Source: Lachnospiraceae bacterium (lineage in GTDB: Bacteria; Bacillota; Clostridia; Lachnospirales; Lachnospiraceae). From it: a stretch of 64,000 nucleotides of DNA. A model generated the notes under the pieces. It saw nothing but the letters and a program-made list of their open reading frames with translations, had not been told where the DNA came from and made no database searches. This document shows positions 62,464 through 62,695 of the stretch, piece by piece (the first letter of the stretch is position 1; each line of letters opens with the position of its first letter). Location: positions 20,487 to 84,486 of the forward strand of contig JAAUZH010000032.1 of NCBI GenBank assembly GCA_014804675.1. Direction: 5' to 3'. The position numbers and the translations under genes are program-made.

Positions 62464-62695
62464 GTAACAGTTCAGGTGCCTGTAAAGGAGAGTGCATTTG
62501 GAAGACGTGGAGCCGGCAGAGCATGTAATAGTCTGTCAGGCACGCTTGCGCTCTGCAAAGACGCAACAGTACTAACGCACCCAAATACGGTGCGTTAGTG
62601 CTGGCGACTTTGCCAAGGCCTGGCAGACTATTACATGCTCTGCCGGCTCCACGTCTTCCAAATGCACTCTCCTTTACAGGCACCTGAACTGTTAC
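62464..62695. repeat. long-hairpin element copy B (72-bp perfect arms + T:G + 5 bp), inverted orientation relative to copy A
   Basis: 62464-62535 pairs perfectly with 62624-62695. Its reverse complement aligns end to end with copy A. Flanked by AGAAGTAT / AGAAGCAT. Confidence 0.9.

Follow-up and report, generated by a model that had tools for sequence, protein, structure and literature searches.

A family of hairpin miniature inverted-repeat elements with IS66/ISBst12-type ends in Lachnospiraceae, with arms that are probably kept paired by arm-to-arm copying

A 64,000-nucleotide stretch of DNA from a Lachnospiraceae bacterium (GenBank assembly GCA_014804675.1, contig JAAUZH010000032.1, positions 20,487 to 84,486; hereafter the window) carries two long hairpins, copies A and B, that are diverged versions of one element. 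It is contained in a 132-kb metagenomic contig (ENA ERZ27267571 k119_60855), the close relatives of which are Lachnospiraceae metagenome-assembled genomes (MAGs). Copy A lies 39 nucleotides upstream of a folC-like gene, the first gene of a folate operon, and copy B has an ABC ATPase gene (62833-63606) on one side and, on the other, a dlt-like operon encoding AMP-binding, formyltransferase, PP-binding and MBOAT proteins. An earlier reading of the sequence, referred to below as the original prediction, had placed copy B between the ABC and dlt-like operons and had described the two copies as facing opposite ways relative to their minus-strand neighbour genes; both statements were confirmed. Copies A and B are the only long inverted repeats in the window, and no coding potential was found in them: they are 228 and 232 nucleotides long, and the open reading frames (ORFs) that run across them are translated repeat only, with no Pfam domain. 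The coordinates of their features are collected in Table 1.

Table 1. Features of the two hairpin copies in the window (MITE, miniature inverted-repeat transposable element; CM R1, covariance model of the family).
Feature	Coordinates	Strand	Remarks
Copy A, hairpin MITE, 228 nt	40030..40257	+	first base G>A relative to orthologue L004
Copy A, left target-site duplication CTGTTTTG	40022..40029	.	CTGTTTTG/CTGTTTTG perfect in L004
Copy A, right target-site duplication CTATTTTA (6/8)	40258..40265	.	
Copy A, asymmetric bulge AGAGCG-AA-AGCGTG (GAAA)	40169..40182	+	
Promoter-like site ATGGCA-18-TATGAT, upstream of copy A on the folC strand	40275..40304	-	conserved in L004, L036
Copy B, hairpin MITE, 232 nt, GTAAC...GTTAC	62464..62695	-	CM R1 155 bits on -, 89 on +
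Copy B, asymmetric motif AGAGCGCAAGCGTG		-	
Copy B, left target-site duplication AGAAGTAT	62456..62463	.	7/8 match to 62696-62703
Copy B, right target-site duplication AGAAGCAT	62696..62703	.	
Copy B, terminal inverted repeat GTAACAGTTCAGGTG, IS66/ISBst12-type terminus	62464..62478	+	compared with IS termini
Copy B, second terminal inverted repeat	62681..62695	-	
Copy B, 148-nt core hairpin	62506..62653	-	unit common to all 26 family members
Copy B, asymmetric bulge AGAGCG-CA-AGCGTG (GCAA = GNRA)	62541..62554	-	

The near-perfect arms described for copy B were confirmed. Its inverted repeat spans 62463-62541 and 62618-62696 (79 nucleotides, 99% complementary, with a 76-nucleotide spacer), and inside the element 77 of 78 arm positions are paired, the sole exception being a T:G pair. 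In copy A, the arms (40031-40105 and 40182-40256) are complementary at all 75 positions (100%) around a 76-nucleotide centre. Folding energies of the two copies, -197 and -204 kcal/mol, each lie about 26 standard deviations beyond those of dinucleotide shuffles. The reverse complement of copy B aligns end to end with copy A, with an identity of 72% in the arms and 82% in the centre, in agreement with the earlier statements that the two copies align along their full length and differ at roughly a quarter of arm positions. At copy B, the octamers AGAAGTAT and AGAAGCAT directly abut the GTAAC...GTTAC ends and form the 7/8 direct repeat that had been noted at both junctions. The window contains the 11-mer terminus TAACAGTTCAG at four places and no others, namely the four ends of A and B.

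Relatives were collected by pattern, profile and covariance searches. When genomes were scanned with the pattern GGAGCCGGCAG-N(105-135)-CTGCCGGCTCC, four Lachnospiraceae/Clostridiales MAGs proved to carry copies, and matches were also obtained in GC-rich phyla; these last, about half of all matches and from non-Firmicute phyla, were discarded, since they match the GC-rich clamp by chance. Gene callers have predicted 'proteins' from the repeat, which is open in one frame, and a profile of these translations recovered 19 database ORFs (P0001-P0019), the contigs of which yielded additional copies. The final set, defined with nhmmer and a covariance model (CM R1), consists of 26 non-redundant copies; the loci sampled amount to about 400 kb and come from about eight Lachnospiraceae assemblies. 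Relative to neighbouring genes the copies are found both ways round (15/26). Three of them are on the window's own contig. The covariance-model search of the window detected no copy beyond A and B, and the third copy (L001 1098-1245), which is of the asymmetric type described below, lies about 2.1 kb past window position 64000. Copy B is at one end of the ABC operon and this third copy at the other, upstream of the gene for the substrate-binding protein, so that the operon is bracketed by two copies in direct orientation. A similar arrangement in Roseburia was judged not to be orthologous, the ATPases being just 46% identical.

Divergent inverted pairs of copies 100-1000 nucleotides apart are frequent among the collected loci (L029 9071-9218 on the minus strand and 10187-10334 on the plus strand; L022 9763/10103; L025 9994/10226; L016 2291/2750), and the L029 pair encloses a SUKH/SMI1_KNR4 immunity-type gene (9472-9966) in a composite-element-like arrangement. 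A hairpin from the rumen Clostridiales RUG117 (L007 989-1151) has the GGAGCCGGCAG/CTGCCGGCTCC clamp and a similar GTAGGCGAGAGCCGGGC bulge, the rest being different; by eye it may be a distant relative, but it was undetected by CM R1 and so was left out of the family. Outside these genomes, two scans of viral contigs with core patterns gave no matches, a scan of JGI metagenomes gave a single match, a chance one in GC-rich coding DNA, and blastn of copy B against plasmids and phages found nothing. The window had no match in Rfam 15 at the gathering score, and at E<=10 only generic hairpin models of plant and animal microRNAs were obtained. Nothing relevant was present in the literature searched for the element's sequence strings, for Lachnospiraceae MITEs or for ISBst12 MITEs.

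The original prediction could not place the element in a known family, a view that the ends of the element now overturn: its termini and 8-bp duplication are of the IS66-family ISBst12/ISGka4 type. Placement in a known family is among the outcomes that the original prediction had itself named as refuting it, here as regards novelty of category. The terminal inverted repeat, GTAACAGTTCAGCCCG, matches at 14 of 16 bases the insertion sequence (IS) terminus GTAACTATTCAGCCCG, which is found in an IS of the Geobacillus plasmid pHTA426 and at locus L035. The plasmid IS is a single-ORF member of the IS66 family with the ends GTATCTATTCAGCCC and GTAACTATTCAGCCCG and the 8-bp repeat GACGAGTT on both sides. 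Its product is named by NCBI "IS66-like element ISGka4 family transposase" and has the domains DDE_Tnp_IS66, zf-IS66 and DUF6444 (transposases of this type carry PF03050, PF13005 and PF20042). Two metagenomic ISs that encode homologues of this transposase end in GTAACTATTCAGCCCG / GTAACTATTCAGGCC and in GTTACTACTCAGGC / GTTACTGCTCAGCC. Published examples agree: ISDge4, of the ISBst12 group, has the terminus GTAACTGCTCAGCA and an 8-bp repeat (PMC12898284), and IS66 inverted repeats begin with GTAA and have duplications of 8 bp (PMC11946415). ISGka4 has been placed under ISLre2, with 9-bp repeats found experimentally (PMC8024623); despite this naming, the Pfam content of the pHTA426 transposase and the name ISBst12 of a 58%-identical protein assign it to the IS66 superfamily. 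Only the termini of the element match the pHTA426 IS, and the true parent IS may be another. A likeness between the 5'-arm motif TTTCGATAC and the interior of that IS was at noise level and was set aside.

As the original prediction had stated for the window, mobility genes are lacking: tblastn found no IS66-family transposase in the window or in loci L001-L032 (about 400 kb), and other transposase families were absent on reading of the ORF translations, with no profile search made for them. The IS66-type termini and the 8-bp duplication mark the element as non-autonomous, and target-site duplication, terminal inverted repeats, occurrence in both orientations and many copies together show it to be an inserted mobile element. 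On this sequence evidence we classify it as a non-coding, multi-copy MITE with IS66/ISBst12-type termini and 8-bp duplications, representing what appears to be a new and previously undescribed MITE family of this type. Because no cognate transposase was found, it is from the termini only that we infer mobilization in trans by an IS66-family transposase encoded elsewhere.

The folC site supplies further evidence of insertion. L004 holds the orthologue of copy A in another species, in which the folC coding sequence is 4.6% different and the flanks are the same. There the element, GTAACAGTTCAG...CTGAACTGTTAC, still lies within an intact 8-bp duplication, two identical copies of CTGTTTTG. In the window this duplication has decayed to CTGTTTTG / CTATTTTA, and a mutation has also changed the element's first base. 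In all, the duplication matches at 8/8 positions in L004, at 7/8 both in B and in the L036 remnant described below, and at 6/8 in A. The sequence GTAACAGTTCAG... is present at both ends in A, B, L004, L006_979 and L016_4176. Termini are decayed in most asymmetric copies, and target duplications could not be established in those copies on inspection of their flanks. The flanking duplications anticipated at other copies were thus found at copy A, in decayed form, and intact in L004, but were not recoverable in the asymmetric copies.

A search for an empty site with a single copy of the duplication, as the original prediction had envisaged, revealed no truly empty site. Instead, at the same site in the more distant orthologue L036/L038 (FolC 86% identical) there is only GTAACAGTTCAG-ACAGCAGCTGGCG-GAACTGTTAT, that is, the two termini and 13 nucleotides; this remnant of 35 nucleotides is still flanked by the duplication TAAAACGG / TAAAACAG. 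The hairpin body has been deleted at the folC site in the L036/L038 lineage. That termini and duplication are kept without the body indicates that the insertion of copy A is old and that such long palindromes can be lost; the insertion is older than the split of lineages with FolC 86-92% identical. Two other isolated ends were seen. At L024 3600-3636, a small GNAT-like ORF is cut short by a lone right end (...CCTGTGGGCTGAACTGTTAC) directly next to it; this end resembles an element-associated deletion remnant. At L006 5339-5353, the terminus GTAACAGTTCAGCCC stands in left-end orientation 40 nucleotides downstream of an asymmetric copy, and may be an inverted terminus or an adjoining, truncated second element.

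Comparison of the outer arms in 24 copies separated two types. In 19 of the 24, the arms are unlike each other, with 5-18 of 36 positions complementary, whereas the other five are symmetric, with 32-36 of 36. Asymmetric copies have a short 5' arm, consisting of a decayed terminus followed by (G)GCyTTTCGATACACAG, and a longer 3' arm that reads GTCCTCCTATCCAAAyCCCCC... and then leads into a frequently decayed terminus. In contrast, the 3'-arm motif (GGATTTGGA / TCCAAATCC) is present in both arms of A, B, L004 and L026, from which TTTCGATAC is missing, and L016_4176 has the 5'-arm motif on both sides. Symmetric copies built from either type of arm match what copying from arm to arm would predict, and they point to copying in either direction.

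Alignment of A with L004 identified 10 differences in 226 nucleotides. Two are changes of both partners of a pair, made in situ: C-G>G-C at 40091/40196, and G-C>A-T. Another is at the free GNRA position, and the rest are arm mismatches in L004. By region, the centre differs at 1 of 76 positions, the arms at 9 of about 150, and the intergenic flanks at about 8%. L004 thus keeps four arm mismatches, one single and a cluster of three positions, and several other family copies have one or two mismatches adjoining GTCTT; the earlier observation that no arm change goes uncompensated is therefore correct for A and B and does not extend to the whole family. The cluster in L004 (7230-7245, 7316-7330; window 40048-40060 / 40228-40240) reads AGCGTGC / AGAGCGTG and resembles the central bulge AGAGCG..AGCGTGC, which may reflect template switching to the centre or may be coincidence.

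These data bear on whether pairing is maintained at all. A and B might simply be young, ordinary MITE copies derived from two perfect-hairpin master elements, and in favour of this the same stem variants are found at unrelated loci of different genomes (L004, L006_5156), from which it follows that stem sequences are at least partly inherited by transposition. The insertion of copy A, however, predates the lineage split noted above, and its arms are still paired at 75/75 positions although 2 of 8 positions of its duplication have changed and its 5' terminal base has mutated. In addition, in-situ double changes separate A from L004 (one orthologous pair), and the masters would themselves need a source of compensated change. 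We therefore consider recent origin from two masters very improbable. The first option of the original prediction, a non-autonomous element that regenerates each arm from the other, is the best supported of the readings and gains support both from the existence of unlike and symmetric arms and from these in-situ double changes.

Pairing was next considered in the 148-nucleotide core, GTrGGAG...CTCCyAC, which is common to all copies. Its outer helix (17 bp) and second helix (19 bp) are highly variable between copies, and its centre of 78 nucleotides is strongly conserved (CCTTGGCAAAGTCGCCGG..CTTACGCACC-loop-GGTGCGTTAGTACCGCTGCGTCTTTGC-AGAGCG-NR-AGCGTG). Across 22 aligned copies, the 61 pairs of the core are 98.7% paired and 39 of them have changed on both sides (202 cells), in line with the earlier proposal that pairing is conserved rather than sequence. 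This level of covariation was reached in 0 of 500 shuffles and no slid register came near it, in controls that ignore the relatedness of the copies. The two outer helices contain just 6 G·U among about 790 cells, and many of the pair changes are transversions (G-C/C-G/T-A). So few G·U pairs and so many transversions fit copying better than stepwise compensation in RNA. In the centre, the 3'-side bulge AGAGCG-NR-AGCGTG varies at two positions only and is always GNRA (GAAA, GAGA, GGGA, GCAA or GGAA), and the G·U positions 45/107 and 72/78 are kept, uncorrected, in 22/22 and 20/22 copies. With CM R1, one strand scores 140-170 bits and the other 66-97, and the element is thus polar.

In the main rival reading, purifying selection acts on the hairpin body as a functional structured module, RNA or single-stranded DNA, carried by IS66-type ends; pairing would be kept by selection on structure (with a part in processing or stability, in insulation, or in transposition as a cis-acting cofactor) and with no copying mechanism. 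The centre is far more conserved than stems or termini, and its one difference between A and L004 is at a free loop position; the bulge loop is GNRA in every copy, the conserved G·U positions are paired on one strand only, CM R1 scores the two strands unequally, and nine covarying pairs lie in helix 3. Against this, orientation to neighbour genes is near-random, the element brings neither promoter nor terminator with it, Rfam has no matching family, and the body has been lost at the folC site in one lineage with the operon retained. The near lack of G·U in the long helices and the transversion changes would also be unusual for compensation at the RNA level, and the covariation controls are blind to copy relatedness. 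We regard selection without copying as unlikely, though deserving of some weight. Much the same holds for the unlikely possibility that the 148-nucleotide core is a mobile non-coding RNA with a function of its own on IS66-type ends, for which the nearly invariant 78-nucleotide centre, the GNRA-only loop and the two strand-specific G·U positions speak; it could be a regulatory or processing hairpin that rewires neighbour operon leaders, or an RNA or single-stranded DNA cofactor for its own mobilization, and the centre would then outlive the termini because it is under host selection.

The explanation that we favour, with a probability of roughly 70%, is a family of IS66-type MITEs of about 230 bp that are mobilized in trans and have arms kept paired by arm-to-arm copying. 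The elements would be moved by the DDE transposase of an IS66-type IS elsewhere in the genome, the expected cognate being an IS with GTAAC..TTCAGCCC termini. Each body is one long hairpin, with the 148-nucleotide core flanked by arms that in most copies are unlike each other. During replication, intrastrand template switching (quasipalindrome correction) would repeatedly recopy one arm from the other, and a change in one arm would then be either erased or turned into a Watson-Crick double change. In some copies, including A and B, the whole outer arm may have been symmetrized in this way to give a perfect palindrome of 75-79 bp, as the sequence patterns suggest. Target duplications, lying outside the palindrome, would go uncorrected and decay in the ordinary way, as would the often decayed termini of asymmetric copies, which are not in a perfect palindrome. 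Arm copying by template switching, which we infer from these patterns, would account for arms that stay paired while the flanking duplication decays, for the scarcity of G·T and for the existence of a symmetric subset.

Intrastrand template switching is a documented process that homogenizes and extends inverted repeats and produces multibase compensated changes in one step (PMC8794818; PMC7202029, PMC8604942). Quasipalindrome template-switch mutation (the Ripley model; Lovett laboratory; Monttinen & Loytynoja 2022, PMC8794818) predicts one-step multibase compensation, homogenized arms and outward growth of inverted repeats, and these predictions match the symmetric versus asymmetric copies and the in-situ C-G>G-C swap. 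It is, however, a mutational mechanism and not an element family, and its action here is deduced from patterns.

Several observations weigh against this explanation. A cognate transposase was found neither in the window nor in the approximately 400 kb of related loci, and none was linked to the genomes that carry the copies. L004 retains its four arm mismatches. In most asymmetric copies, the centre is nearly intact, the termini are barely recognizable and no duplication was found. Neutral decay of a MITE does not predict an intact centre with decayed termini, which suggests selection on the centre or gene conversion between copies. The GNRA-only bulge and the kept G·U positions argue for a strand-specific constraint beyond template switching alone. 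Together these features point to selection on a strand-specific structure, either for the element's own propagation or for the host, with gene conversion among copies as the alternative.

The palindrome might also function at the DNA level, its cruciform or hairpin serving in recombination, as a replication-pause site or as a single-strand origin, in the manner of attC or REP/RAYT. Its pairing is almost wholly Watson-Crick, its ends (...TAAC / GTTA...) superficially resemble the attC R box, and assemblies break at the element. Yet the copies are single and lie in housekeeping intergenic regions rather than in cassette arrays, the locus listings contain no integrase and, in a search that was not exhaustive, no RAYT gene, the 8-bp duplications and DDE-type IS termini indicate DDE transposition, and wherever a G·T is conserved the opposite strand would have an A·C mismatch. 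We give a DNA-level function of this kind hardly any weight. Integron attC sites do share with the element the conservation of structure over sequence, ends of the form ...AAC / GTT... and conserved unpaired features, but the element has no cassette arrays or integrase, has an 8-bp duplication, and is conserved in the sequence of its centre, where attC sites are variable. REP/REPIN repeats (units of about 20-40 nucleotides, RAYT/TnpA-REP, no duplication) are also unlike the element, with its 8-bp duplication and DDE-type termini; no IS200-like gene was present in the locus listings, with the limit on the RAYT search already given. Breakage of short-read assemblies at the element was seen at several loci: L002 begins inside a copy, and L030 and L031 end in copies. 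An apparent truncated copy in L023 proved to be a scaffold gap of Ns (7673-7949); the sequence given as 7700-7850, upstream of the scaffold gap, looks by eye like a cobalamin-riboswitch core (…AATCGGTGAAAGTCCG…).

Among known systems, the element most resembles IS-derived bacterial MITEs (IS66, ISBst12/ISGka4), in being about 230 bp long, non-coding, multi-copy, intergenic and present in both orientations, and IS66-type ISs themselves, in 14/16 terminal bases and the 8-bp duplication. It differs from the IS examined in that its interior has no similarity to it and its whole body is one hairpin with an asymmetric, conserved centre. Correia/NEMIS repeats of Neisseria, ERIC/IRU of enterobacteria, RUP/BOX of Streptococcus and REPINs of Pseudomonas are likewise short non-coding repeats that form stable hairpins when transcribed; like the Lachnospiraceae element, they lie near genes in both orientations with conserved structure, and REPINs are known for compensated arm changes. 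Their termini and mobilizing enzymes are different, they are shorter (about 100-150 nucleotides), and Correia and RUP duplicate TA and REPINs use RAYT with no duplication, in contrast to the 8 bp found here. To our knowledge, none of these repeats has a 61-bp covarying helix or a conserved GNRA bulge.

With respect to transcription, copy A would lie in the 5' untranslated region of the folC operon if the promoter-like site listed in Table 1 is used. Because this site is upstream on the folC strand and conserved in orthologues, copy A is probably transcribed as a 228-nucleotide hairpin within the folC leader, where it would form an RNA hairpin of great stability. For the family as a whole, a role as a 5' leader or riboswitch-like element was rejected, as orientation is 15/26 and the neighbour genes are unrelated; these two points, the lack of a promoter or terminator within the element and the loss of the body at the folC site argue against a gene-specific role. 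No host function has been demonstrated for the element, and the RNA hairpin would be a side effect. To the right of copy A, some 550 nucleotides (window 40258-40810) have no ORF of at least 60 amino acids, and synteny with L004 stops at about 40338. Elsewhere, the 3' flanks of three copies (L005 2602, L024 7801 and L001 1098) contain a promoter-like TTGCAT/TTGCTA/TTGACA-N17-TACAAT/TAAAGT after the C-rich end of the 3' arm; it points to the downstream gene and may belong to the element or to the target.

With this element, gut Lachnospiraceae (assemblies from the gut of mouse, vole and others, Roseburia among them) gain a repeat family that is undescribed and seems to be abundant. No published IS66/ISBst12-type MITE was found in the literature searched, and within that literature this is apparently the first MITE to be linked to termini of this type. 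Recognizing it improves annotation, since the element breaks assemblies, makes scaffold gaps and places spurious 'hypothetical proteins' in databases. Dozens of copies together with orthologous pairs form a natural system in which double changes, arm symmetrization and body deletion can be counted, and the family allows one to ask how long perfect hairpins persist, whether through template switching or through selection. If the centre does prove functional, the family would represent a mobile structured RNA that has been inserted in operon leaders such as that of folC.

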